From the sequence record MT446390.1: 64,000 nucleotides of DNA, one strand, 5' to 3'. The notes beneath the pieces are model-generated. The model had not been told where the DNA came from. It saw only the letters and a list, made by a program, of their open reading frames with translations, and did no database searches. The position numbers were made by a program, and so were the translations under genes. The DNA is from Escherichia phage TH12. This document shows, piece by piece, positions 6,158 through 57,957 of this stretch (position 1 is its first letter; every line of letters starts with the position of its first letter).

Positions 6158-6739
6158 ATGGCTAGTTTAATTTTTACCTATGCCGCTATGAACGCTGGTA
6201 AGTCTGCTTCATTACTTACTGCCGCACATAACTATAAAGAACGTGGCATGGGTGTATTAGTTCTTAAACCGGCTATTGATACTCGCGATTCAAAAGGTGA
6301 AATAGTCTCCCGTATTGGTATTCGTCAGGATGCCAATATAATTACAAAAGACATGGATATCTTTGAATTTTATAAATGGGCTGCAGCACAAAAGGATATT
6401 CACTGTGTATTTGTTGACGAAGCTCAGTTCTTAACTACTGAAAAGGTGTATCAACTTAGTCGTATTGTTGACGTATACAATGTGCCGGTAATGGCATACG
6501 GACTACGAACAGATTTTAAAGGTAATCTATTTGAAGGTTCTCAAGCATTAATGGCTATTGCCGATAAGCTTGTTGAACTTAAAGGTGTCTGTCATTGTGG
6601 TAAAAAGGCCACTATGGTAGCTAGAGTCACGGAAGACGGACTTCCAATTACAGATGGCAGTCAAATTGAAATTGGTGATACCGATAGATACGTGTCATTA
6701 TGCCGGAAGCATTGGAATGATTTGACAGGGTTGTTATAA
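6158..6739 (+). CDS. tk: Thymidine kinase
   Basis: MASLIFTYAAMNAGKSASLL...VFVDEAQFL...CHCGKKA...LCRKHW matches T4 Tk; 193 aa. Confidence 0.95.
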   Translation: MASLIFTYAAMNAGKSASLLTAAHNYKERGMGVLVLKPAIDTRDSKGEIVSRIGIRQDANIITKDMDIFEFYKWAAAQKDIHCVFVDEAQFLTTEKVYQLSRIVDVYNVPVMAYGLRTDFKGNLFEGSQALMAIADKLVELKGVCHCGKKATMVARVTEDGLPITDGSQIEIGDTDRYVSLCRKHWNDLTGLL

Positions 6740-6766: not shown

Positions 6767-6979
6767 ATGCAGCAATTAAACGAAAGACAACTTCGTAATC
6801 TTACTGTAACCCAATTGGATGAAATCCGAAGAGAATTAGGACATTCTATTTCTCATTTAAACGAGGATATCCGTCAAACTGGTTCTAAAGCTGATTATAC
6901 ACGCAAGCGCAAGCTGGAAAAATACCTCACAGATGTTAAGGCCGTCCAAAGGCGAAAAATAAATACTGGCCAAAATTAA
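6767..6979 (+). CDS. Hypothetical protein (70 aa)
   Basis: ATG with SD-like AGAGG upstream. Confidence 0.5.
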
Positions 6980-6991
6980 CAGGAGGCCTAT

Positions 6992-7294
6992 ATGGCCTTA
7001 AGAGCGATAGCTGTCATGGCGATGCTGGGGTTTTTTGCAGCAACAACTCCTATCGTTGGTACTGCACATATTGACCCATATTTTGATAACTTTATGGAAT
7101 CAGGGATTAAAAACGTATATACTTTGTTTGAAATTCAAAATGTCGAGAATTCTGAAAAATTCTATAAGTATATGGCAAAGCATTACAAAAATAGCCCCTG
7201 TGATGATGCATTTGAATGTCATGAACAAGGCATAAAAACTGCCAGACAATTTGCTGAGTTCATGAAAATAAAATTAGAGCCTACATCTATCTAA
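6992..7294 (+). CDS. Hypothetical protein with hydrophobic N-terminus (100 aa)
   Basis: SD CAGGAGG upstream; N-terminus MALRAIAVMAMLGFFAATTPIVG is signal/TM-like. Confidence 0.55.
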   Translation: MALRAIAVMAMLGFFAATTPIVGTAHIDPYFDNFMESGIKNVYTLFEIQNVENSEKFYKYMAKHYKNSPCDDAFECHEQGIKTARQFAEFMKIKLEPTSI

Positions 7295-7301
7295 TTTACT
7301 A

Positions 7302-7330
7302 GCCCCTTCCTTATGGTTGGGGCTTTTTGG
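7302..7330 (+). terminator. Putative intrinsic terminator
   Basis: agcccc...ggggct hairpin followed by ttttt. Confidence 0.5.
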
Positions 7331-7339
7331 CATTTAACA

Positions 7340-7368
7340 GTTTACTTCTCCTTGAGATGTGTTATAGT
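7340..7368 (+). promoter_or_regulatory. T4-type early promoter
   Basis: gtttac 7340-7345, 17-bp spacer, tatagt 7363-7368. Confidence 0.6.
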
Positions 7369-7395
7369 AGTCCTTACTTACTAGAGGAGAACGTT

Positions 7396-7575
7396 ATGAC
7401 ACGTAAAGAAAAGATTTCTAAGTTGATGTTTTTGATTGAAGAGTACGCTAATGCGGTATCTGATTGGGAAAATGCTCATGGTTGCGAAGATGGAGACATC
7501 GACATTAACAGGGCTATGAAAAAGATGGCCGACGCTCACACCGAATTGCAAATGTATGTTAACGAGATTATGTGA
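7396..7575 (+). CDS. Hypothetical protein (59 aa)
   Basis: Internal ATG (MTRKEK) after SD AGAGGAG; track start 7327 lies in promoter region. Confidence 0.5.
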   Translation: MTRKEKISKLMFLIEEYANAVSDWENAHGCEDGDIDINRAMKKMADAHTELQMYVNEIM

Positions 7576-7582
7576 GGATATT

Positions 7583-7789
7583 ATGCTTTACGATTATACT
7601 GGAAAATCTGAAGACGGTGTACTTGAACTTTTACCTGAAAGCGCTGAAGATGATGATATGGTGGTGATGTTTTGTAAAAATGGCCCTGGGGATAAGGGAT
7701 GGATTTATCTTCGCCAAGAAAATGACCTAATTGTTTTAGACCCTAAACAAGTTGAAGAACTTTATCAACATTTAAAACACAATCGGTAG
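7583..7789 (+). CDS. Hypothetical acidic protein (68 aa)
   Basis: ATG 7583 after GAGGA; alternative ATG 7556. Confidence 0.5.
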   Translation: MLYDYTGKSEDGVLELLPESAEDDDMVVMFCKNGPGDKGWIYLRQENDLIVLDPKQVEELYQHLKHNR

Positions 7790-7829
7790 TTTACATCTTG
7801 GTAGGACTATGTTATAGTAGTCCTACCAA
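7789..7829 (+). promoter_or_regulatory. T4-type early promoter with 11-bp inverted repeat flanking the -10
   Basis: gtttac 7789-7794, tatagt 7813-7818; arms ttggtaggact 7798-7808 / agtcctaccaa 7819-7829. Confidence 0.6.
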
Positions 7830-7846
7830 AACAAACGGAGAACAAA

Positions 7847-7957
7847 ATGAAACTTTTGCTTATCGCTTATGTTGTAGTACAATACAATTATCCGATGTTT
7901 ACTTATAACATGGTAAACGGCATAGTGAATCTTATTGAAACGAGTATGGTAAAATGA
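7847..7957 (+). CDS. Small ORF (36 aa), uncertain
   Basis: ATG after SD-like ACGGAG; below ORF-track cutoff; stop overlaps next ATG (ATGA). Confidence 0.3.
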   Translation: MKLLLIAYVVVQYNYPMFTYNMVNGIVNLIETSMVK

Positions 7958-8133
7958 CCCGTGAACAAGCTAATAAATTGATGGACCTTATCCATGACCT
8001 ACGTGAAGCCGATTCAGATTTGAATGATGTAGCTTATCACGCGGTAAATGATAACGGAGACTTTTATGAAAATCAGGTTGATGCTTGTCAGAATGATTTG
8101 GTGAATTTTGTTGAAACTTTAATTGGTGAATAA
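7954..8133 (+). CDS. Hypothetical small acidic protein (59 aa), paralog-like to 5966-6148
   Basis: MTREQANKLMDLIHDLREAD resembles KLFELIHDLLDEQ of the 5966 ORF; below track cutoff. Confidence 0.45.
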   Translation: MTREQANKLMDLIHDLREADSDLNDVAYHAVNDNGDFYENQVDACQNDLVNFVETLIGE

Positions 8134-8134
8134 T

Positions 8135-8665
8135 ATGAAAATTGTAATTGAAACAACCGAGTTGTTTGGTGATTTATGTATCGAAAAACGTGGTTATGCT
8201 TACGTTCTGACACAAGAAGATGATTCTGTTACTATTCTTCCTATGGAACTGGACAAGATTTTGAAACTCAATCCACCGGGCCATGCATCTGTAATTAACA
8301 TTGATGAAGACCTTCAAGTTCGTTTTTATCATGGACTTTATAGTGGGGTTAATATCGAAACAGAAGATGAATGCCTTTCTATTAATAATTGGAAAACATT
8401 CGTCACTAAAGTGAAAGAATTCATTGAATCTGAAACAGCCAAAAAGGCCAAACTTCAATGGGCTAAATGCCGTAATGCTTTTATTACAAATCAGGACCGC
8501 CCTGACTATACAACGGTCCTAGGCGTTAATCCTTCTTATGAAGATGGCGATGTTGTAGTTATTCGTCAAATTGATGACCTTCGTCAACATATCGTTACAT
8601 TAGACAAAGATGAAGCAGTTGCTCTTAAAGCTTATCTTGATTCTATTATCCCAACTTTGAAATAA
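8135..8665 (+). CDS. Hypothetical protein (176 aa)
   Basis: Internal ATG (MKIVIETT) directly after upstream stop; track start 8123 not ATG. Confidence 0.6.
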   Translation: MKIVIETTELFGDLCIEKRGYAYVLTQEDDSVTILPMELDKILKLNPPGHASVINIDEDLQVRFYHGLYSGVNIETEDECLSINNWKTFVTKVKEFIESETAKKAKLQWAKCRNAFITNQDRPDYTTVLGVNPSYEDGDVVVIRQIDDLRQHIVTLDKDEAVALKAYLDSIIPTLK

Positions 8666-8674
8666 GGAATTATT

Positions 8675-9148
8675 ATGATTATCAATGAAAACTCTTGGCA
8701 CTTTAAAATTTATGCCGCGTTCAATAGTACATGGAATCGTCCGAAAACGTTGTGTGCTTATTTTTGGAAAACGTTAATCCCAGTATTGTCTGTTTCAATT
8801 ATTGGATTTGCGATTTTAGCAGCAGTCGTAATCATTGGCCAGGAAATTTTAACTAGATTCTTTGTTTTTAGCAGTCTATGGACATTAGTTCCGGCCTCAA
8901 TTGGCGTAGGCATTTTAATGGTAGCAGTCATGTCTCTTATTGCTGTCGGGTTGGTAATTGGCCCGTCTTGGTTGTTAGACAAATATAACGACAGAAAATA
9001 TTATAAAGAAGTTGAGCTCATTGCACAAAACCAAGAACGAATTAAAAATGGACTTGAGCCTATTGAACGTAAGAAATCATTAATAGGTGAATACCTTAAA
9101 GCTCGTAAAGAAAAAGTCTGTCCTACTCTTGAATATAAGGCTAAATGA
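8675..9148 (+). CDS. Membrane protein (157 aa)
   Basis: Two to three hydrophobic helices (LIPVLSVSIIGFAILAAVVIIG; VPASIGVGILMVAVMSLIAVGLVIG). Confidence 0.6.
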   Translation: MIINENSWHFKIYAAFNSTWNRPKTLCAYFWKTLIPVLSVSIIGFAILAAVVIIGQEILTRFFVFSSLWTLVPASIGVGILMVAVMSLIAVGLVIGPSWLLDKYNDRKYYKEVELIAQNQERIKNGLEPIERKKSLIGEYLKARKEKVCPTLEYKAK

Positions 9149-10134
9149 TGAAAACAATTATGAAAGGCTACTTTGGTAGTCACCTTTATGGAACGTCTAC
9201 TCCTGAATCTGACGTCGATTTTAAAGAAATTTATGTCCCTCATGCTCGTGATATCTTGACCGGTAACGTTAAAGAACACATGAGCAAGAACACGAATAAC
9301 ACATCTTCTAAGAACACAAAAGACGACGTGGACCATGAGTTGTATAGTCTCAAATATTTCTTTAAACTAGCTGTGGATGGTGAAACCGTCGCATTAGATA
9401 TGCTTCACACTCCACAAAGTCTAGTAGTTAAATCTGATTTGCCTGATGTATGGAAGTATATTCAAGATAACAGATCTCGTTTCTATACCACTAACATGAA
9501 ATCTTATTTAGGGTATGTCCGTAAGCAAGCTTCTAAATATGGCGTCAAGGGTTCTCGTCTGGCTGTTCTCCGCCAAGCCCTTAAACGTTCTAATGAATGG
9601 GGACGATACTTTGATAATGGCGCAGTAATTCGTTTATCACATATGAAGAACGTTCTGCCTGTAGGTGAATTTGCTTCATGGGTTGAAACTGAAAACGAGA
9701 AAACAGGTAAGCAAACATTCTATAGTCTGTTGGACCGTAAATTCCAAGACACGTTAACCAATAAAGAGTTCAATGCCATCCTGGTTAAACTTGAAGAGAA
9801 CTACGGTGAACGTGCTCGTAAGGCAGAAGCCAATGAAGGTATTGATTGGAAAGCATTGAGTCATGCATGCCGTGGTGGACTTCAGCTCTTAGAAATTTAC
9901 AAAACCGGCGACCTGGTTTACCCGCTTCAGGATGCTCCATTTATTCTCGATGTTAAGCTTGGTAAACATACGTTTAAAACCGTACAGGAATTCTTAGAAG
10001 ATATCGTTGACCAAGTTGAACATGCGGCAGAACAAGCTGCTAAGAACGGTATGCAGCAAAAAGTAGATATGAGTTTCTGGGATGACTTCCTTGAGCAAGT
10101 CTACTTAGAAAACCACAATTCATACTATAAATGA
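9145..10134 (+). CDS. Pol-beta-superfamily nucleotidyltransferase-like protein
   Basis: N-terminal GS-x10-DVD motif (GYFGSHLYGTSTPESDVDF) typical of minimal nucleotidyltransferases; 329 aa. Confidence 0.65.
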   Translation: MMKTIMKGYFGSHLYGTSTPESDVDFKEIYVPHARDILTGNVKEHMSKNTNNTSSKNTKDDVDHELYSLKYFFKLAVDGETVALDMLHTPQSLVVKSDLPDVWKYIQDNRSRFYTTNMKSYLGYVRKQASKYGVKGSRLAVLRQALKRSNEWGRYFDNGAVIRLSHMKNVLPVGEFASWVETENEKTGKQTFYSLLDRKFQDTLTNKEFNAILVKLEENYGERARKAEANEGIDWKALSHACRGGLQLLEIYKTGDLVYPLQDAPFILDVKLGKHTFKTVQEFLEDIVDQVEHAAEQAAKNGMQQKVDMSFWDDFLEQVYLENHNSYYK

Positions 10135-10210: not shown

Positions 10211-10249
10211 AGACCTATCAAAACGAAATGAGTAAATTTGGAGAATAAA

Positions 10250-11230
10250 ATGTTCAACGTTCAAATCAAAAAAGGTATCTATCGTAATAATGAAATCTCC
10301 GGTTCTTATGTTGCCACAAAGACATGGTTCCCAGCAAAGCTTAATCCTGAATGTTCCCACTTAGGTGACGGTAAAATTTTCGTTATGATTGATGGTTCTG
10401 AACGTGGAGTATGGGTCTTCAAATCAGACATCGTAATGGAAGGAGTTGAGACGACACCAGTTGCAGTTGTTGAAAGCACTGAAGATATGAAAACTCGTAT
10501 CAACAAACGCTTTAAAGTAATGAACATGATGACGAATGGCATTATCGATGGCAAAATTCGTTCACTCATTATTTCAGGTGCAGCTGGTATTGGTAAGACG
10601 TATTCTCTGGATAAAGCGCTTAATAATGCTAATGATAATGGTTTCATCAAATACAAAAGCATTAATGGTAAAATCTCTGGTATTGGCCTTTACGAACAAC
10701 TTTGGCTCAACCGTGATGCAGACAGCGTTCTCTTAATCGACGATGTTGATGTATTCTCGGATATGGATATCTTGAACCTTCTTAAAGCAGCATTAGATAC
10801 TGGTGATAAACGCAAAGTTTGCTGGAGCACTGCATCATCTTATCTTGATGATAAGGGTATCGATAAAGAATTTGAGTTTGAAGGTACTATTGTTTTCATT
10901 ACAAACGTTGATATCGATAAAGAGTTAGAACGCGGTTCGAAACTTGCTCCGCACCTTCAAGCTTTAGTATCTCGTTCAGTGTATCTCGACCTTGGAGTAC
11001 ACTCTAATGAAGAGATTATGGTTCGAGTTGAAGATGTAATATTATCTACTGACATGATGCAGAAACGTGGTCTGACGGATGCAGAAACGTATAAAGCATT
11101 GTCCTGGATGAAGGCTAACGTATCTCGTCTTCGCAATGTATCATTACGTACGGCTCTTTATGTAGCAGATTTTATTTCAACCGATAAAGATGGTTGGGAG
11201 GAAATCTCTGAAGTAACTTTACTGAAATAA
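10250..11230 (+). CDS. AAA+ ATPase-like protein
   Basis: Walker A ISGAAGIGKT, Walker B VLLIDDVD; 326 aa; track start 10238 is TTG. Confidence 0.7.
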   Translation: MFNVQIKKGIYRNNEISGSYVATKTWFPAKLNPECSHLGDGKIFVMIDGSERGVWVFKSDIVMEGVETTPVAVVESTEDMKTRINKRFKVMNMMTNGIIDGKIRSLIISGAAGIGKTYSLDKALNNANDNGFIKYKSINGKISGIGLYEQLWLNRDADSVLLIDDVDVFSDMDILNLLKAALDTGDKRKVCWSTASSYLDDKGIDKEFEFEGTIVFITNVDIDKELERGSKLAPHLQALVSRSVYLDLGVHSNEEIMVRVEDVILSTDMMQKRGLTDAETYKALSWMKANVSRLRNVSLRTALYVADFISTDKDGWEEISEVTLLK

Positions 11231-11650: not shown

Positions 11651-11708
11651 TTGTTTACAAGGTCTATGGTTGTGTTATTATAGACCTATCAACTACTGGA
11701 GGTAAAAC

Positions 11709-12236
11709 ATGAACGCTAAAGATATTTTCAACCTGGTAAATTATAACGACGGTAAATTTAAATCTGAAGCACAGAGCAAGTTCTTTAATGACGTTGCTTA
11801 TGGTAACGAGATTACCGTGGATGGAGGTCAGATTTTCAAATCTCGCTGGAATTGGATTGCTATCATCGATTCAGTTGGAATTGTGGAAGTCTACAAAAAC
11901 ACTAACAAAAAACGTACATTATTCTGGTCTCGTGAAACTAACGAACAGTACAAAAAGGATAAAGCATCTCGTTTATCCAAAGTAACCCAGGAAGATATCG
12001 AGTTTATCAAGAAAGATATCGAGATGTACGAAAATTTAATAGCTGAAGACCAGGCAGTACTCGATAAGTTTGATGAAATTAAAGCTTCTCGTGAAATCCC
12101 TGACTTCATGAAAGAAACAGTAAACGAACGATACGCTCTCACTTCAGAACGTATTGCAAACTATACAAAACAGAAAGCAGAACGTATTAGTACTCTTCGG
12201 AAATTTGAAGAACGTTTAAAGACGGTTCACGCATAA
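11709..12236 (+). CDS. Hypothetical protein (175 aa)
   Basis: ATG after TGGAGG; early promoter upstream. Confidence 0.6.
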   Translation: MNAKDIFNLVNYNDGKFKSEAQSKFFNDVAYGNEITVDGGQIFKSRWNWIAIIDSVGIVEVYKNTNKKRTLFWSRETNEQYKKDKASRLSKVTQEDIEFIKKDIEMYENLIAEDQAVLDKFDEIKASREIPDFMKETVNERYALTSERIANYTKQKAERISTLRKFEERLKTVHA

Positions 12237-12298
12237 ACGCTTTACCCAAGGACGGGTTATAATGGTTTTGAGTTCCAATTCAATCTGAGGAAATAGTT

Positions 12299-13294
12299 AT
12301 GAGCATTATATCTGATGCGGTAAAACATGAAATTAACGGTTTATGTGCTTCACAGATTAAAGTGTGGTTTAAAGACCATAACGATCGCAGAGCACTTAAT
12401 TATGAGCAAATTGCTATCCAAGTTCATCAATTACTGACTAGTAAATTTGATTTTCATATGCCATCTGAAATCTATACTAATCTGCCACGAGCACTTATTA
12501 AAGCGTGTAAAGGTTATGGAAAATCAATGGCTGATGGAATCTTCAGCGCGCTGAATAAACTTAACGTTCTGTCGATGATTAACTCTAACAATATCCTGCG
12601 TAATCTAGGACGTACTGATTTGTTCGGACGTGAACAGTGTAAAATGCCTTTGAAATGGATTGTTGCTCATCTTAACGAGAACCAAACACGTTTTATGGCC
12701 GTAACAGCACGTTTACAAATGGGCTTAGATCGTCAGATGAACTTTAAAACTCATCCATGTTATTCAGGTTCAACAGACTTTTATAAATGCGAGCTTCAAA
12801 AGGTCGGTGGCAAAACTGTCTTAGTAGTTCGTGTAACGTTTGAAGGACGACGTCAAGGATATTTTGACATAATCGGCTCTGGTCTTAAACATTGTGGATT
12901 TATCAACGAAGTTGATATCAAGCGAGACAGCGTTGGATACCGTATTGGGTATGTTTGTACTCTTAAAGAAGAGATTTCAGGACCAGCACCAGGACTAAAA
13001 GACGTTAGATATAAAGACGAGCTCGTTGAAGAAATAAAAGAAGTTGAATATGATATCAACCAAGAAGATGCTCTTAAAGACCTTATTGACGAACTAAACC
13101 AAGACGTTATTCCGGTTCAGAAATTTGAATCAAAACATGCTGAGCAAATCAAATACTTTGAAGCTTTGATTAACGAACTTAATGTAACTATTCAACAGAC
13201 TGACGATGAAATCTCACGATTAGCAGGCTTAAATGGTAAAAATAAAACAGAACGAGCTAATCTTATTCAAGTAGTAAAACTTCTTAAGGAATGA
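12299..13294 (+). CDS. Hypothetical protein (331 aa) with C-terminal coiled-coil-like segment
   Basis: ATG after TGAGGA; heptad-like C-terminus. Confidence 0.65.
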   Translation: MSIISDAVKHEINGLCASQIKVWFKDHNDRRALNYEQIAIQVHQLLTSKFDFHMPSEIYTNLPRALIKACKGYGKSMADGIFSALNKLNVLSMINSNNILRNLGRTDLFGREQCKMPLKWIVAHLNENQTRFMAVTARLQMGLDRQMNFKTHPCYSGSTDFYKCELQKVGGKTVLVVRVTFEGRRQGYFDIIGSGLKHCGFINEVDIKRDSVGYRIGYVCTLKEEISGPAPGLKDVRYKDELVEEIKEVEYDINQEDALKDLIDELNQDVIPVQKFESKHAEQIKYFEALINELNVTIQQTDDEISRLAGLNGKNKTERANLIQVVKLLKE

Positions 13295-13323
13295 TGTACA
13301 ACCAAGGATGGTTGGAGTATAAT
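13295..13323 (+). promoter_or_regulatory. Early promoter with spacer stem-loop (caacc-AAGGAT-ggttg) abutting TATAAT
   Basis: tgtaca 13295-13300, spacer hairpin, tataat 13318-13323. Confidence 0.6.
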
Positions 13324-13349
13324 AAATTTTTCAACATGAGGAATATAAA

Positions 13350-14309
13350 ATGGCTTTTATTACACGTAGAGAACTTATCAAAGAATTTACCTCGAACGCA
13401 TATACTCCAGGACCTAATCCTATCCGTATGCCTGTAAAGACTCCTGAAGAGATTGAGGAAATCTGTTCGTATTATGGGATTACTTCTCGTATGTTTACTC
13501 AATTTGAATGTGTTACTAACACGCCCGTTAAAGAGTTCATTAAAAATGGTGAGTTCAGCCGTTTATTAGCCAAACAGAAACTTCGTAATTTTTGTATTGG
13601 CGGTTGTGGACAATATTTCGCTAAGCAGTTCCGGAATAACCTTAACAATCTGATGGCCATTGCTTCTCGTATTCGTCCTCAAGCAATTAACATGAAACAT
13701 TTGAAATATACTTACGATAAGTTAGAAATCATGGTTATCAGTGAGAACGAGTTCACTCTTACGTATAAACCTAAGAATGATAACGTTGCTCGTGTATTCC
13801 ACCAAGCGCTAGAAGTGTTAGGCGATAATATCCATGAGATTAAAGCAATTTATTCTCGTGAGCTTAATATTATCGACCCTATCAAGAATAAGGGCCATAT
13901 CGCTATCCAGGCTCGTGTATCTATTGGTAAAAAGGTTCCTGCGCCATGGTGGCACAAAGACTCTGAATACTATCAAAATCTTAAAAAGGAAAATGCAACG
14001 TTCGAAGGCAATATCACAGCAACACCAGTCGGTAATGCAGAGGTTCTAAGCGCATATTCTCCGACACAACCCGGTATGTTTAAAGGTTTGCCAAATGTGT
14101 GCAAACTGTCGGCAGTAAAACTAAATGTTTCTAATGACCTTCTTCCGGCCGAAGATTATCATTACAACCAAATCAAGGCTACTGTAGACCAACTGTCCGT
14201 TGAACTTGACAAAGCACAAGCTAAGCTTCGTGATGCTCAAAGTGTTGTAACGAATCTCCAGTTGCAGTACTCTAAACTTTTTAATGCAATGAATGCATTA
14301 AAATCATAA
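13350..14309 (+). CDS. Hypothetical protein (319 aa) with C-terminal coiled-coil-like segment
   Basis: ATG after TGAGGA; own promoter. Confidence 0.65.
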   Translation: MAFITRRELIKEFTSNAYTPGPNPIRMPVKTPEEIEEICSYYGITSRMFTQFECVTNTPVKEFIKNGEFSRLLAKQKLRNFCIGGCGQYFAKQFRNNLNNLMAIASRIRPQAINMKHLKYTYDKLEIMVISENEFTLTYKPKNDNVARVFHQALEVLGDNIHEIKAIYSRELNIIDPIKNKGHIAIQARVSIGKKVPAPWWHKDSEYYQNLKKENATFEGNITATPVGNAEVLSAYSPTQPGMFKGLPNVCKLSAVKLNVSNDLLPAEDYHYNQIKATVDQLSVELDKAQAKLRDAQSVVTNLQLQYSKLFNAMNALKS

Positions 14310-14313
14310 AACG

Positions 14314-14343
14314 GTTTACAACCAAGGATGGTTGGAGTATAAT
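14314..14343 (+). promoter_or_regulatory. Early promoter with spacer stem-loop (caacc-AAGGAT-ggttg) abutting TATAAT
   Basis: gtttac 14314-14319, tataat 14338-14343; 26-nt identical to 13298-13323 and 56460-56485. Confidence 0.6.
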
Positions 14344-14371
14344 GAATCTATCTTAACGAGAGGAAAATATT

Positions 14372-15322
14372 ATGACACGTTCACATTACATTGAATACTT
14401 TGCCGGTCTTATCGCTAACGTTCATGCCCAGCGCGCTGTTGGTGCACTAGGATTTGATGTTCCACACCGAGATGTAGTAAGTGGTATTCTTCGCGATTTT
14501 GGTACATACACAGGTCAAGAAAATCATATCTGTAAAGATACTCAGAATGCGTATTCTCATTCATTAGGGACACTGCTTCAATGGTTCAAACGTTCTCGTT
14601 TATTATCTTCTACTGTAGCTCGCGATAACATTAAAAACTTTATGAAACCGAGCTTTATTAAATCTGTGACATCTAAAACCGATTTGGTTGAATTCACTAT
14701 TGTTAATGATGTTAAAAAGACTCATTTGGCTGATTGGTTATCTACCATTCCTGAAACTAAATTCGCTGATAAATTTGCTTGTGAATTCAATAACCAAGTG
14801 AATATGCTTTTTAAACATTCTCGTAAATTATTCACGGGCGGTGATGGTCGTACAAATAAAGTTCATGTTAAAGATTGGGTTACTGCAGTATTCAAACCGA
14901 CCGGTAATGGTAACGCATCATTATCAATTGATATCCAGGTTCCTTATTACTACTCACGTAATCTCGGTACCATGAAAGCTGAAGAAATTAATAAGCATAA
15001 CAAAACCGTTCGTTCATTGTCTTATAAACTTATTACATTGTTAGAGACTATGGATGTTGTTGAAACGTTCGACGAATCCGAAGATAACGGTTCAATGTTA
15101 TACAGTTCTCGCACCCGAATTAAGCTGAAGAACCCTAACGAGTATAAACTTAAGACTATTAAAGAACCTAAAGTAGAAAAAGTTGACAACTTGAGCGAAG
15201 AACGTGAATATCTCAAATCTCGTCTGAAAGAAGTCGAAGCCCAGATTAAAGAACAGACTAAATCATTAAAAGCTCTGAATGCAAAAGCTGATGGTTTACG
15301 AAATGCTATTGAGGTTTTATAA
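14372..15322 (+). CDS. Hypothetical protein (316 aa) with C-terminal coiled-coil-like segment
   Basis: ATG after AGAGGA; C-terminus LKSRLKEVEAQIKEQTKSLKALNAKADGLRNAIEVL. Confidence 0.65.
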   Translation: MTRSHYIEYFAGLIANVHAQRAVGALGFDVPHRDVVSGILRDFGTYTGQENHICKDTQNAYSHSLGTLLQWFKRSRLLSSTVARDNIKNFMKPSFIKSVTSKTDLVEFTIVNDVKKTHLADWLSTIPETKFADKFACEFNNQVNMLFKHSRKLFTGGDGRTNKVHVKDWVTAVFKPTGNGNASLSIDIQVPYYYSRNLGTMKAEEINKHNKTVRSLSYKLITLLETMDVVETFDESEDNGSMLYSSRTRIKLKNPNEYKLKTIKEPKVEKVDNLSEEREYLKSRLKEVEAQIKEQTKSLKALNAKADGLRNAIEVL

Positions 15323-15627
15323 TGAAACTACGTCTTTTAGAGGATATTGATATGAGCACTAATCATGGCTTGGTTAAGTTTATTGACGATAGTTCAAAGA
15401 TTGAATTTGTTCAGCGAGATAAAATCCACGGTGAAGAAGAGTTCGTTCCTCCGGCATGGAACGAAATCATGAAAATGGTTGAACGACGTGAAAATGCTGC
15501 CAAATCGGCGGCAAAACATCCATGCCCGGAATGTGGAACTATCCAAGTCCAACTGGTTAACTGGACCACTGATAACTTGAAATTGAAATGCCGTAAATGC
15601 TTCCACAAATTTGAGAGAATATTATAA
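15322..15627 (+). CDS. Zinc-ribbon protein (101 aa)
   Basis: C-terminal CPECG...CRKC motif; TAATG overlap with upstream stop. Confidence 0.6.
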   Translation: MKLRLLEDIDMSTNHGLVKFIDDSSKIEFVQRDKIHGEEEFVPPAWNEIMKMVERRENAAKSAAKHPCPECGTIQVQLVNWTTDNLKLKCRKCFHKFERIL

Positions 15628-16040
15628 TGAGATATAGCCTTCGTTGTTTTATCGCAGCTTTAGTTTTTGCCGTTATTCCATTCATTTGGAACAGTCAGAA
15701 TACTTACATGGAAACTAAAGTAATTCCTGTGGAGGTAGTGGAATTAATCTCAGGCCAATCTACAGGAAAATATTCTAAATTAGAATTTATTGCAGTCTAT
15801 AAAGATGAGCAAGGACGAGTTTTTGACAGGCGTGTATCGCCATCGTTTTATACGCTTCTGAATAAAGGTGATACGATAGCTATAGAAATTCGTGAGATGG
15901 ATATCAAACAAACTACTAAAGATAACTTGATTTGGTTCTTTGGTACAGTGTTGTTGGTTTCTATTTGTATCACAGGTTTTATTACATGTATTGTATTTGG
16001 CATTGCATATTTAATCGATGAAAGGAAAAATAATGTTTAA
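15627..16040 (+). CDS. Membrane protein (137 aa)
   Basis: N- and C-terminal hydrophobic helices. Confidence 0.6.
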   Translation: MRYSLRCFIAALVFAVIPFIWNSQNTYMETKVIPVEVVELISGQSTGKYSKLEFIAVYKDEQGRVFDRRVSPSFYTLLNKGDTIAIEIREMDIKQTTKDNLIWFFGTVLLVSICITGFITCIVFGIAYLIDERKNNV

Positions 16041-16296
16041 AGTGTACGGGTATGACTCTACTATTCATAAATGCATTTATTGCGATAATGCGAAACGACT
16101 GCTGACTGTTAAGAAACAGCCATTCGAATTCATTAACGTTATGCCAGAAAAAGGTGTATTCGATGATGAGAAAATTGCTGAGCTTCTGGTTAAGCTTGGA
16201 CGTGAATCACAAGTTGGATTGACTATGCCTCAAGTGTTTGCTCCTGACGGAAGTCACATTGGTGGATTTGACCAACTACGAGAATATTTTAAATGA
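16033..16296 (+). CDS. nrdC: Thioredoxin/glutaredoxin NrdC
   Basis: MFKVYGYDSTIHKCIYCDNAKRLL...QVFAPDGSHIGGFDQLREYFK matches T4 NrdC; 87 aa; track start 16018 lies upstream. Confidence 0.9.
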   Translation: MFKVYGYDSTIHKCIYCDNAKRLLTVKKQPFEFINVMPEKGVFDDEKIAELLVKLGRESQVGLTMPQVFAPDGSHIGGFDQLREYFK

Positions 16297-16589
16297 GTAT
16301 TGATTTAACTTTCCCTGGCCCTTATGACCAGAACGAATTAGAAACTTTGTTATATCAAGAAATGTGCTCTCGTGCTAAGAACGATATTCAGTATGCTATT
16401 GATAATCCATGGGGCGAATTTCGGGTAATGATGGGTAATAGAATCATCGGTGTCCAATGGCGATTCGTTGGCCTTGAGCCTGAGGACTATGAAGAAAACG
16501 AGCATGGTGACTGGATTCCTGTTGGTGAATACCACTGGGAATACGGTGGTCCTGACTTCGAAGTTTCCTGTGCATGGGTAGAACAATAA
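16293..16589 (+). CDS. Hypothetical protein (98 aa), bracketed by a direct repeat
   Basis: ATGA overlap with nrdC stop; flanked by repeats 16279-16296 / 16594-16611. Confidence 0.55.
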   Translation: MSIDLTFPGPYDQNELETLLYQEMCSRAKNDIQYAIDNPWGEFRVMMGNRIIGVQWRFVGLEPEDYEENEHGDWIPVGEYHWEYGGPDFEVSCAWVEQ

Positions 16590-17692: not shown

Positions 17693-18166
17693 ATGTTATT
17701 ATCTGGCAAATTATACAAAGAAGAAAAACAAAAATTTTATGATGCACAGAACGGTAAGTGTCCTATTTGCCACCGTGAATTAGACCCTGATGTTCAAGGT
17801 AACCATCTTGACCACGACCACGAGTTAAACGGGCCAAAAGCCGGTAGAGTTCGTGGATTACTCTGTAATCTGTGCAACGCAGCAGAAGGCCAAATGAAGC
17901 ATAAGTTCAACCGTTCTGGTCTTAAAGGTCAAAACGTTGATTACCTCGAATGGCTTGAAGCTCTTCTTGCTTATTTGAAACAAGATTATTCTGATAATAA
18001 TATCCATCCTAATTTTGTTCCAGACAAAACTAAAGAGTTCTCAAGACTAGGTAAAGAGGAAATGATGGCTGAGATGCTTCAAAGAGGATTTGAATATACT
18101 GAATCTGATACTAAAACACAATTAATAGCTTCATTCAAAAAGCAGCTTAGAAAGAGTTTAAAATGA
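17693..18166 (+). CDS. 49: Endonuclease VII (Holliday-junction resolvase)
   Basis: MLLSGKLYKEEKQKFYDAQNGKCPICHREL...HLDHDHELNGPKAG...LCNLCN matches T4 gp49; 157 aa. Confidence 0.95.
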   Translation: MLLSGKLYKEEKQKFYDAQNGKCPICHRELDPDVQGNHLDHDHELNGPKAGRVRGLLCNLCNAAEGQMKHKFNRSGLKGQNVDYLEWLEALLAYLKQDYSDNNIHPNFVPDKTKEFSRLGKEEMMAEMLQRGFEYTESDTKTQLIASFKKQLRKSLK

Positions 18167-56450: not shown

Positions 56451-56455
56451 AAACA

Positions 56456-56485
56456 GTTTACAACCAAGGATGGTTGGAGTATAAT
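56456..56485 (+). promoter_or_regulatory. Early promoter with spacer stem-loop (caacc-AAGGAT-ggttg)
   Basis: gtttac 56456-56461; tataat 56480-56485. Confidence 0.6.
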
Positions 56486-56515
56486 CTTTCTATCTTAACC
56501 AAACGGGAAAACATT

Positions 56516-57010
56516 ATGAATATCAATACCACGGCTACTTACATCCTGAAAGACGAAAAACAAATCAACTGGTACAGTGCTTCAGTGCGAGCTTATGAAA
56601 AGTTTTGTGAAATTTTAGGTGCCACTCAAGGTAATAGTTTCACTATTGTTAACTTCATCAAACAAGTTGAAGGCCCTTGGTTATTCTTAGAAATTAAAAA
56701 TTCATATGGTACAATTTCTACTACCGCCCTTCCAAGCACCGACTTTGAACTGTTGATTGAAGAAGTAGAACCCGTTAAAGATATCTGTATTGATATGGAT
56801 ATCACTTGTATGTACGGTACTCTGATTAAGCCTATTGAGCCTACTGATTTGTTGTGTAAATATGTTTCAATTCGACGCCCATTCGCTGGTCCAGTAAATG
56901 GATGGGTAACTGACCAATGGATTGAAGACGATGTTGAACTTCTGAACGTTGTTCATGCAGGTGATTTTAGTGTAGTTCCACGTAGTGCTGTGGTTAATAT
57001 CCTTAATTAA
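56516..57010 (+). CDS. Paralog family member 1 (164 aa)
   Basis: Internal ATG (MNINTT); C-terminal NGWVTDQWIEDDVELLNVVHAGDFSVV shared with next two genes. Confidence 0.6.
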   Translation: MNINTTATYILKDEKQINWYSASVRAYEKFCEILGATQGNSFTIVNFIKQVEGPWLFLEIKNSYGTISTTALPSTDFELLIEEVEPVKDICIDMDITCMYGTLIKPIEPTDLLCKYVSIRRPFAGPVNGWVTDQWIEDDVELLNVVHAGDFSVVPRSAVVNILN

Positions 57011-57013
57011 TGT

Positions 57014-57042
57014 TGTACATCCAAGGACGGATGGAGTATAAT
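57014..57042 (+). promoter_or_regulatory. Early promoter with compensated spacer stem-loop (catcc-AAGGAC-ggatg)
   Basis: tgtaca 57014-57019; tataat 57037-57042. Confidence 0.6.
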
Positions 57043-57072
57043 GAATTCAACTTAAACAAAGAGAGAGAAATT

Positions 57073-57528
57073 ATGATTACTATTGGTGAAATTAAGCGTG
57101 TATCATCTGCATCTCGTTCTAAAGCTGCAGGTCGTCTGGTTGAAGTTGTCGGACTTCGTACTAATGGTACTGGACGTGTTAAAGAAGTTAAAGTTCGAAT
57201 CATTCCTAGTTCCGGAAAAACTGAAACTCAGTACGCTTACGTAAGTCCTAAATTCTTGGAAACTCATGTGAGCGCTCATTTTGCTTCTACTGAACCTAAT
57301 GTACAGTTCAAATGGGCCTTGTGTAAAGGTGTTGAATTCCAGACTGATAAAGAATTTGACTTCATCGATGAATACGGTTATCCAAGCAAAACTGATACTA
57401 TGTGCGGCTTCATTAGTGACCAATGGGTTGAAGATGGTGAAAAGTTATACAATATCGTATTCTTAGGTGACTTCCGAGTTGTTAAAGAATCTGAAATCAC
57501 TCGCTATGTGTCTCCTCGTAAAGCTTAA
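57073..57528 (+). CDS. Paralog family member 2 (151 aa)
   Basis: Internal ATG (MITIGEIK); SRSKAAGRLVEV...GFISDQWVEDGEKLYNIVFLGDFRVV. Confidence 0.6.
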   Translation: MITIGEIKRVSSASRSKAAGRLVEVVGLRTNGTGRVKEVKVRIIPSSGKTETQYAYVSPKFLETHVSAHFASTEPNVQFKWALCKGVEFQTDKEFDFIDEYGYPSKTDTMCGFISDQWVEDGEKLYNIVFLGDFRVVKESEITRYVSPRKA

Positions 57529-57537
57529 GGAATTATT

Positions 57538-57957
57538 ATGAATATTGTAAATCTCTCTACAGGTGATTACGTATATGTATCTGTTGCTTCTCGCTCTAAA
57601 GTTGCCGGGAAGTTGGTTGAAGTTCTTTCTGTGAGTGATCCGGTTTTTGGTCGTAACCAAGTTAAAGTTCGTGATGCTAATGGTAATATTGGCTACGTCT
57701 CAAGCCAGTTCATTGAGCCAGAAGAAAAAGCGTTCAAATGGGGACTATGCAGATCAGTTTCTGTTGAAAAAGACCATGAATTCACTATTGCTGCGGCAAC
57801 TGATGGAACGCCATGGAAAACTAAGCAAATCGGCGGATTTATTAGCGACCGTTGGGTAGAAGATGGTGTTAAGCTTTATAACATCGTTTTCGCTGGTCAG
57901 TTCATGGTAGTTCCTGAATTCCAAATTAAAAAATATAGCCCAGCTGCTTTCGCATAA
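57538..57957 (+). CDS. Paralog family member 3 (139 aa)
   Basis: SRSKVAGKLVEV...GFISDRWVEDGVKLYNIVFAGQFMVV. Confidence 0.65.
   Translation: MNIVNLSTGDYVYVSVASRSKVAGKLVEVLSVSDPVFGRNQVKVRDANGNIGYVSSQFIEPEEKAFKWGLCRSVSVEKDHEFTIAAATDGTPWKTKQIGGFISDRWVEDGVKLYNIVFAGQFMVVPEFQIKKYSPAAFA

Follow-up and report, generated by a model that had tools for sequence, protein, structure and literature searches.

In the tk-nrdC interval of Escherichia phage TH12 (MT446390.1; the 64,000-nucleotide stretch analysed here is called the window), three consecutive genes encoding proteins of about 320 residues occupy positions 12,299 to 15,322, and they raise the question of whether they are unrelated modules of similar size or copies of one gene. 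All three lie on the + strand, the direction of early transcription, and each is preceded by a GAGG Shine-Dalgarno sequence. Gene 1 (12299-13294) encodes a 331-amino-acid (aa) protein of the RB69 nrdC.6 type, gene 2 (13350-14309) a 319-aa protein of the nrdC.5 type and gene 3 (14372-15322) a 316-aa protein of the nrdC.3 type. A preliminary description of the window, drawn from the sequence alone, had given these proteins unrelated globular N-terminal regions. The comparisons presented here indicate, with high but not complete confidence, that genes 1 to 3 are remote, highly diverged paralogues of one superfamily.

The relationship was examined in a set of 39 T4-like loci, for which the conserved nrdC.10 gene served as the anchor. 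Open reading frames (ORFs) of at least 200 aa downstream of nrdC.10 were clustered, and the cluster profiles were then compared using hhalign. The nrdC.3-type family, to which gene 3 belongs (F3), matched the nrdC.4-type family (F4) with 97.8% probability over 243 columns. The families of gene 1 (F6) and gene 2 (F5) each matched Fa, a 338-aa family from Enterobacter, Kosakonia and Edwardsiella phages (94.2% and 94.1%, respectively), and F5 additionally matched F4 (72.5%). All four alignments were colinear and covered 156-243 columns. When profiles were merged (F5+Fa+F6+Fd+Fh against F3+F4+Fe), the probability was 96.5%, and it was still 95.1% after 60 C-terminal residues had been cut from every sequence. 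The merged-profile match spans two N-terminal motifs, S-x-L-L-x(4-6)-L-x-N-F and F-x3-F-x2-N-x3-L-L-x2-A-S-R-L-x2-G. In comparison, hhalign runs on shallow database alignments gave a significant result only for nrdC.3 versus nrdC.4, the other pairs remaining below 2% probability.

Iterative searches with hidden Markov models (HMMs) led to the same grouping. Those started from each of genes 1 to 3 reached the same 71-73 proteins among the 1208 non-redundant ORFs of all loci, and no gene known as unrelated was recruited. When 65 C-terminal residues were removed everywhere, the iterations from genes 1 and 3 still converged, with the gene 2 family included. Across the 39 loci, the profile network unites genes 1 to 3 with T4 nrdC.4 and eight further families. 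Thus, the remote-homology check contradicted the claim of unrelated N-terminal regions, since profile-profile and iterative searches joined the three proteins, also without their C-terminal ends, despite a blank BLASTP result. We propose a NrdC.3/4/5/6 superfamily that would comprise NrdC.3, NrdC.4, NrdC.5 and NrdC.6 of T4/RB69 together with single-copy relatives in other Tevenvirinae; the superfamily link among nrdC.3, nrdC.4, nrdC.5 and nrdC.6 is new here.

The similar size of the proteins and their C-terminal heptad tails, both of which had been pointed out in the preliminary description, were confirmed. In a heptad-register scan with the 95th percentile of 200 shuffles as the null, the only segments above the null were aa 281-310 of gene 1, 267-319 of gene 2 and 269-316 of gene 3. 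Each protein ends in a heptad helix of approximately 40-50 residues containing at least four heptads, and the a/d pattern is readable from the sequence. In gene 1, the heptad-repeat region (13139-13291, + strand, aa 281-331) is interrupted by a GLNGKNK break, and L322/V325/L329 at its end line up with C-terminal columns conserved in the superfamily. The coiled-coil-type helices of gene 2 (14148-14306, + strand) and gene 3 (15176-15319, + strand) were found by the heptad scan and by AlphaFold2. The end of the proteins carries a motif conserved across families, roughly Q-R-x-K-L-x2-A-h-x2-L. It is most likely that this amphipathic heptad helix oligomerises the protein.

The AlphaFold2 models had a mean predicted local distance difference test (pLDDT) value of 53 for gene 3 (26-sequence alignment) and 41 for gene 2 (31-sequence mixed alignment), and their globular parts were unusable. 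Each model contained a single long C-terminal helix, at residues 275-315 in gene 3 and 266-318 in gene 2. This helix was the best-scoring part of the models, with block-mean pLDDT values of 65-81 as compared to 24-68 elsewhere in each protein; the means of 10-residue blocks were 53-81 over residues 271-319 of gene 2 (65-81 from residue 281 on) and 67-80 over residues 281-316 of gene 3. A Foldseek search of BFVD with the better model, which is itself of low confidence, retrieved only the orthologue (E 7e-19) with TM-scores of at most 0.36, and a PDB sequence search with genes 1 to 3 gave nothing under E 0.1. The proteins may consist of a helical N-terminal part with the two motifs, a beta-rich middle, a variable linker and the homologous C-terminal heptad helix.

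Presence/absence mapping among T4-like genera, in which the position upstream of nrdC.2 was compared between loci (with locus-to-phage assignments inferred), revealed one to four family members. One member is present in phages of Enterobacter, Klebsiella and Edwardsiella (CC31, CIP9 and PEi20 types), in the Citrobacter phages Moon, Merlin and CF1 and in Pectobacterium phage PM2. Three members occur in Dhakavirus-like loci (nrdC.6, nrdC.5 and nrdC.4 types) and in the window and other Mosigvirus phages (nrdC.6, nrdC.5 and nrdC.3 types), and four occur in T4. When 1.84 billion representatives were searched exhaustively with an HMM profile mixed from the three families, only 9 proteins emerged: members of these families, fragments, a single nrdC.4-type protein and a repetitive protein of 511 aa. 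The superfamily is very small and phage-restricted. The 511-aa protein (P0063), which is most likely a repeat-driven false positive, consists of repeats of approximately 50 residues (...AFVAKFNNNLNTLLASTYIGGS...) and matched the mixed profile at E 3e-5 via five short stretches resembling motif 2.

Two further ORFs were noted during this mapping. In a Klebsiella-phage-like locus (L039), an ORF of 313 aa located upstream of nrdC.10 (6949-7890, +) was recruited at E ~1e-25 in the truncated iteration and is a superfamily member away from the usual position. An ORF of approximately 260 aa (X260; for example, L027 10836-11636, with equivalents in 18 other loci) lacks a coiled coil and precedes most single-copy members in non-coliphage Tevenvirinae; it was considered as a superfamily relative and rejected, as its hhalign probability was at most 0.5% and no iteration recruited it.

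How the three genes came to stand in a row may be read from the sequences between them. The preliminary description had assigned to each gene its own hairpin-bearing early promoter. A hairpin followed by TATAAT indeed precedes all three genes, and a -35 element at 17 nucleotides (nt) is present for genes 2 and 3; this part of the claim failed for gene 1, where the spacer is 11 nt. Cassette 2 (13295-13323, + strand) comprises TGTACA (13295-13300), the hairpin CAACCA-AGGA-TGGTTG (13299-13314), GGAG and TATAAT (13318-13323). Cassette 3 (14315-14343, + strand) comprises TTTACA (14315-14320), a hairpin (14319-14334), GGAG and TATAAT (14338-14343) and matches the sigma-70 consensus at 11/12 positions. 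Both have spacers of 17 nt containing a hairpin of 5-6 bp and are predicted to be intact promoters of the sigma-70/T4-early type. The degenerate cassette 1 (12241-12263, + strand), located after the nrdC.8-like gene, consists of TTTACC, the hairpin ACCC-AAGGAC-GGGT (12244-12257) and TATAAT (12258-12263), and no other -35 element was seen on reading the sequence. T4 nrdC.7 and the nrdC.6-type gene of Dhakavirus-like loci are preceded by the same short-spacer form. Cassette 1 is probably not a normal sigma-70 promoter, and gene 1 is more likely to be transcribed from a promoter-like site (11654-11681) that precedes the nrdC.8-like gene.

Cassettes 2 and 3 form a 43-nt direct repeat (D1) whose copies are 1020 nt apart. 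The 25-mer CAACCAAGGATGGTTGGAGTATAAT has exact copies at 13299, 14319 and 56461 and a copy with three changes at 57018 (0 expected in shuffles). Mosigvirus p000v contains genes 1 and 3 and is devoid of gene 2; the length missing from it is 1020 bp, equal to the spacing of cassettes 2 and 3. Its junction is a chimeric cassette, with the gene 1-gene 2 junction sequence up to TATAAT and the gene 2-gene 3 junction sequence beyond. As read from the sequences, this is what homologous exchange between the two cassettes, within their identical core of 27 bp, would be expected to yield. Because the cassettes are direct repeats, single gene units are deleted by homologous recombination, and recombination between cassettes may also duplicate or exchange gene units. 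The exact one-gene deletion in p000v is new here. In a megablast search with 11700-16300, T4-type homology covered query positions 6-568 and ended at ~12267, approximately 4 nt past the TATAAT of cassette 1. The deletion in p000v, this homology boundary and the variable copy number bear out the suggestion that the genes form a modular array in the plastic tk-nrdC interval.

Shuffling mediated by such cassettes has already been published for the elements termed PeSLs (Arbiol et al. 2010, PMC2839356; Comeau et al. 2014, PMC4122927). PeSLs are likewise repeated intergenic units of an early promoter plus a hairpin that stand before accessory ORFs in hyperplastic regions (PMC2839356, PMC4122927). 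The TTTACA/TGTACA-N17-TATAAT of two of the three cassettes, cassette 1 at 12241-12263 being the exception, fits the T4/PST consensus TTTACW-N17-TAYWAT (PMC4122927). Recombination of neighbouring copies removes single ORFs in both cases, in p000v here and in RB49/phi1 in the published work (PMC2839356/PMC4122927), and the cassettes lie at boundaries of indels or exchanges, such as the p000v junction and the limit of T4 homology at ~12267. The published stem-loops differ in that they stand just upstream of the promoter and are terminators (PMC4122927), whereas the hairpin in the window lies in the spacer, lacks a T-run and keeps AAGGA(T/C) as its constant loop.

The genes themselves are the already catalogued T-even accessory genes nrdC.6, nrdC.5 and nrdC.3, and the record of Shigella phage Shf125875 labels its three genes as similar to these RB69 genes. 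Gene 1 belongs to PHROG 2257 (E 1e-126) and, by precomputed assignment, to Pfam PF26899, and is 29% identical to T4 NrdC.6 (E 9e-19). Gene 2 belongs to PHROG 2351 and is 26% identical to T4 NrdC.5 (E 3e-12). It matches Pfam DUF7235 over its full length, with 400 bits (cut-off 30; E 1e-119) and residues 15-318 on profile positions 1-307; T4 NrdC.5 likewise matches this profile end to end (418 bits, E 4e-125). Gene 3 belongs to PHROG 1435 and, by precomputed assignment, to PF26897; it is 56% identical to T4 NrdC.3 and more weakly similar to T4 NrdC.4 (E 6e-5). Gene order and orientation equal those of T4, in which NrdC.3, NrdC.4 and NrdC.6 are hypothetical proteins. The window differs from the T4 nrdC-mobD interval in having three copies and no nrdC.4, and in having its nrdC.7 homologue after nrdC.2 and not before nrdC.6. 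The flanking genes are closer to T4 (nrdC.11, 77%; nrdC.10, 78%; nrdC.8, 83%; nrdC, 92% identity).

Full-length homologues in phage records numbered 741 for gene 1, 134 for gene 2 and 653 for gene 3; word-indexed searches with the three genes returned close relatives only, at 55-98% identity. The ratios of non-synonymous to synonymous substitution rates (dN/dS) of genes 1 to 3 against two close relatives were 0.06-0.20, indicating purifying selection. This selection and the full-length conservation show that the genes are real and functional. In T4 (NC_000866), the annotated C-terminus of nrdC.6 (7990-8260, minus strand; ...ELIFLFNNMMMKFSDYLD) looks frameshifted; in the neighbouring frame the sequence is ...QQYDDEIFRLSGLSSKAKSEREKLIKIVDLLKS and shows homology to the coiled coil at the C-terminus of gene 1. 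Hence, either nrdC.6 is truncated in the T4 reference or the reference contains an uncorrected frameshift.

What the proteins do is best approached through gene 2. T4 nrdC.5 expressed from a plasmid restores the plating of a deletion mutant on cells with Dsr1 from ECOR17 (Srikant, Guegler and Laub 2022, PMC9391042). Dsr1 is a defence sirtuin/NADase countered by T4 NrdC.5 (PMC9391042), and its sensor recognises the phage major capsid protein (PMC13581612). The neighbouring nrdC.1 and 49.2 inhibit Septu and OLD, respectively (bioRxiv 10.1101/2025.11.20.689424; PMC13096335). Besides its DUF7235 match, gene 2 resembles T4 nrdC.5 in length, in its location in the nrdC.8-to-nrdC.2 interval with nrdC.6 directly upstream, and in the C-terminal helix of its product (QYSKLFNAMNALKS against QRSKLNNALNALN). 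Pfam, NCBIfam and PADLOC scans of 13 diverse superfamily members detected only DUF7235 and scattered coiled-coil noise, and no enzymatic domain. Nearly all superfamily-conserved columns are hydrophobic, which fits a binding scaffold better than an enzyme. A possible functional analogue is DSAD1, the DSR2 inhibitor of phage SPbeta, which likewise lacks enzymatic domains and acts by blocking a SIR2-type NADase (PMC10973363, PMC11087589); it has no detected sequence relationship to the proteins studied here and belongs to another phage/host lineage with another target.

Based on these results, we lean with moderate confidence towards the explanation that the locus is an array of diverged paralogues, separated by recombining promoter cassettes, that encode early anti-defence binders. 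Genes 2 and 3 would each be transcribed from their own sigma-70/T4-early-type promoter, and gene 1 by read-through from the promoter before the nrdC.8-like gene. The products would be early, oligomeric, stoichiometric and non-enzymatic binders that neutralise host immune sensors, and the paralogues may cover different targets or target variants. The case for an anti-defence role of all three genes is circumstantial: it draws on the family membership of gene 2, which is its tie to data, and on the accessory location, the early-type promoters and the anti-defence genes nearby.

Several observations weigh against this explanation. Pairwise BLASTP among the proteins of genes 1, 2 and 3 found no similarity, and the direct hhalign comparison of F6 and F5 gave only 2%, so that the homology of genes 1 to 3 depends on intermediate families and iteration. 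The C-terminally truncated gene 2 query did not expand on its own in the iteration. The heptad-register scan was home-made, and a shared fold was not demonstrated by the AlphaFold2 models because of their poor pLDDT values. The activity and timing of cassettes 2 and 3 are deduced from the consensus, and a simple promoter scan of the region gave 29 promoter-like sites against 37 expected, that is, no excess. The hairpin variants used for the covariation analysis described below came partly from a search that required pairing; a search without this requirement gave the same intergenic set. Finally, the window allele of nrdC.5 is of the RB69 type and just 26% identical to T4 NrdC.5, with anti-Dsr1 activity known for the T4 protein only, and genes 1 and 3 have no link to any defence system.

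It is possible, though in our view rather unlikely, that the paralogues are real and serve a purpose other than counter-defence, as early host-takeover or regulatory factors such as coiled-coil adaptors on the nucleoid, the envelope or the transcription machinery; the effect of T4 NrdC.5 on Dsr1 would then be indirect or branch-specific. The low identity of gene 2 to T4 NrdC.5 and the lack of a known anti-defence domain agree with such a role, and purifying selection among close relatives suits any conserved function. However, the region is dispensable and variable, with copy numbers of 1-4 and a natural loss of gene 2, and the alleles are extremely diverged (26-56% identity to T4 as compared to 77-92% in the neighbours). 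Moreover, three genes of the same interval have experimental anti-defence roles (PMC9391042, PMC13096335, bioRxiv 10.1101/2025.11.20.689424).

With regard to the cassettes, the hairpin might be a chance palindrome that was carried along by the copying of one promoter sequence and is not under selection. The stems measure only 5-8 bp, identity by descent accounts for several of the copies, and single hairpins are weak, with individually unremarkable energies of -5.5 to -9.6 kcal/mol (RNA hairpin of cassette 3, -6.9 kcal/mol) and z-scores of 0.0 to -2.2. Across phages, however, the loop AAGGA(T/C) is constant while six stem sequences around it stay complementary (AACC/GGTT, ATCC/GGAT, CCAC/GTGG, AGCC/GGCT, TACC/GGTA and ACCC/GGGT). 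Paired bases made up 89.6% of the cells, whereas slid controls paired at 17-40%; four of the six pairs had changed on both sides, and the observed covariation score was reached in 0 of 500 shuffles. A chance origin thus appears improbable. The hairpin lies between the -35 and -10 elements, inside the promoter spacer, and can appear in RNA only within read-through transcripts from upstream promoters; this geometry combined with covariation is new here. The hairpin was also considered as an intrinsic terminator, and this was rejected since the T-run is absent and a scan called no terminator-like site at any cassette.

That the three genes are unrelated, with convergent sizes, a generic coiled-coil tail as their sole common part and an origin as independent cassettes from different sources, is very unlikely: the absence of pairwise BLASTP similarity, the assignment to three separate PHROG and Pfam families and the shallow-profile values below 2% would suit it, but deeper profiles and iterative searches unite the genes even without the C-terminal helix, the motifs are colinear over the whole length, the C-terminal end is a conserved motif and not generic heptads, and single-copy relatives occupy the same genomic position.

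After the hairpin, at 13314-13324 and 14334-14344, GGAGTATAAT(A/G) resembles the RegB/S1 cleavage consensus GGAGRAYARAA (PMC1702504). Read-through transcripts might be cut at this RegB/S1-like site, which overlaps the -10 hexamer. GGAG is missing from the cassette variants before T4 nrdC.4 and nrdC.7.

A bolder combination of these elements can be imagined, to which we give little credence at present. The superfamily would consist of coiled-coil-oligomerised decoys or inhibitors of capsid-sensing receptors of the Dsr1/Avs7 type, with paralogues tuned to sensor variants. Enterobacter and Citrobacter phages would have kept a single copy, which in coliphages expanded to three or four. The C-terminal helix might serve the co-assembly of paralogues or docking to a common partner, and the cassette would do triple duty, as promoter and recombination site in the DNA and, in the RNA of read-through transcripts, as a hairpin with a RegB/S1-type site behind it (GGAGUAUAAU compared with GGAGRAYARAA).

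The advance is incremental, since both the genes and their shuffling mechanism had been catalogued before. The T-even nrdC interval is emerging as a counter-defence island, in which published work has nrdC.5 acting on Dsr1, nrdC.1 on Septu and 49.2 on OLD. If nrdC.3, nrdC.4, nrdC.5 and nrdC.6 form one diverged family whose members share an oligomerising tail, the one member tested so far would be a lead for three or four further genes per phage, and a concrete screen would follow, in which defence-system libraries are challenged with each paralogue. The natural loss of one gene at identical cassettes illustrates cleanly how such repertoires gain and lose members, which is relevant to host-range prediction for therapeutic T4-like phages.

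Downstream of dda and dexA, the same hairpin-promoter cassette was also observed at 56453-56485 and 57010-57042, in front of two further small genes that are paralogous. In the stem of the copy at 57018, an A-T pair has become T-A by a compensatory change. The small ORFs behind these cassettes (56474-57010 and 57010-57528) and a third paralogue (57538-57957) share the C-terminal segment (V/I)(T/S)D(Q/R)W(I/V)EDG...L(N/Y)NVV/IVF.GDF.VV. In KT184309/KT184310 (phages ATK47 and ATK48), which match 12000-15700, the depositors labelled a 'direct repeat sequence1 posible binding site of StbAB'; this annotated repeat is probably the cassette repeat.

The region at 12000-15700 is 98% identical to Shigella phage Shf125875, classified in the genus Mosigvirus of the Tevenvirinae (RB69 group), and to Escherichia phage CCU7. 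The interval is flanked on the left by tk, the thymidine kinase gene (6158-6739), and on the right by nrdC (glutaredoxin/thioredoxin, 16033-16296), and the endonuclease VII gene lies at 17693-18166. Within the tk-nrdC interval of the window, no homologue was found of T4 nrdC.1, which has been reported to inhibit Septu. The variable array is headed by a conserved upstream pair, an nrdC.11-like nucleotidyltransferase gene of the RlaP/pol-beta type (9145-10134) and an nrdC.10-like gene for a P-loop protein resembling AAA/STAND proteins (10238-11230). The nrdC.7 homologue (15627-16040), located between nrdC.2 and nrdC, encodes a predicted membrane protein 42% identical to T4 NrdC.7, and its position is unlike that of T4 nrdC.7, which lies between nrdC.8 and nrdC.6.

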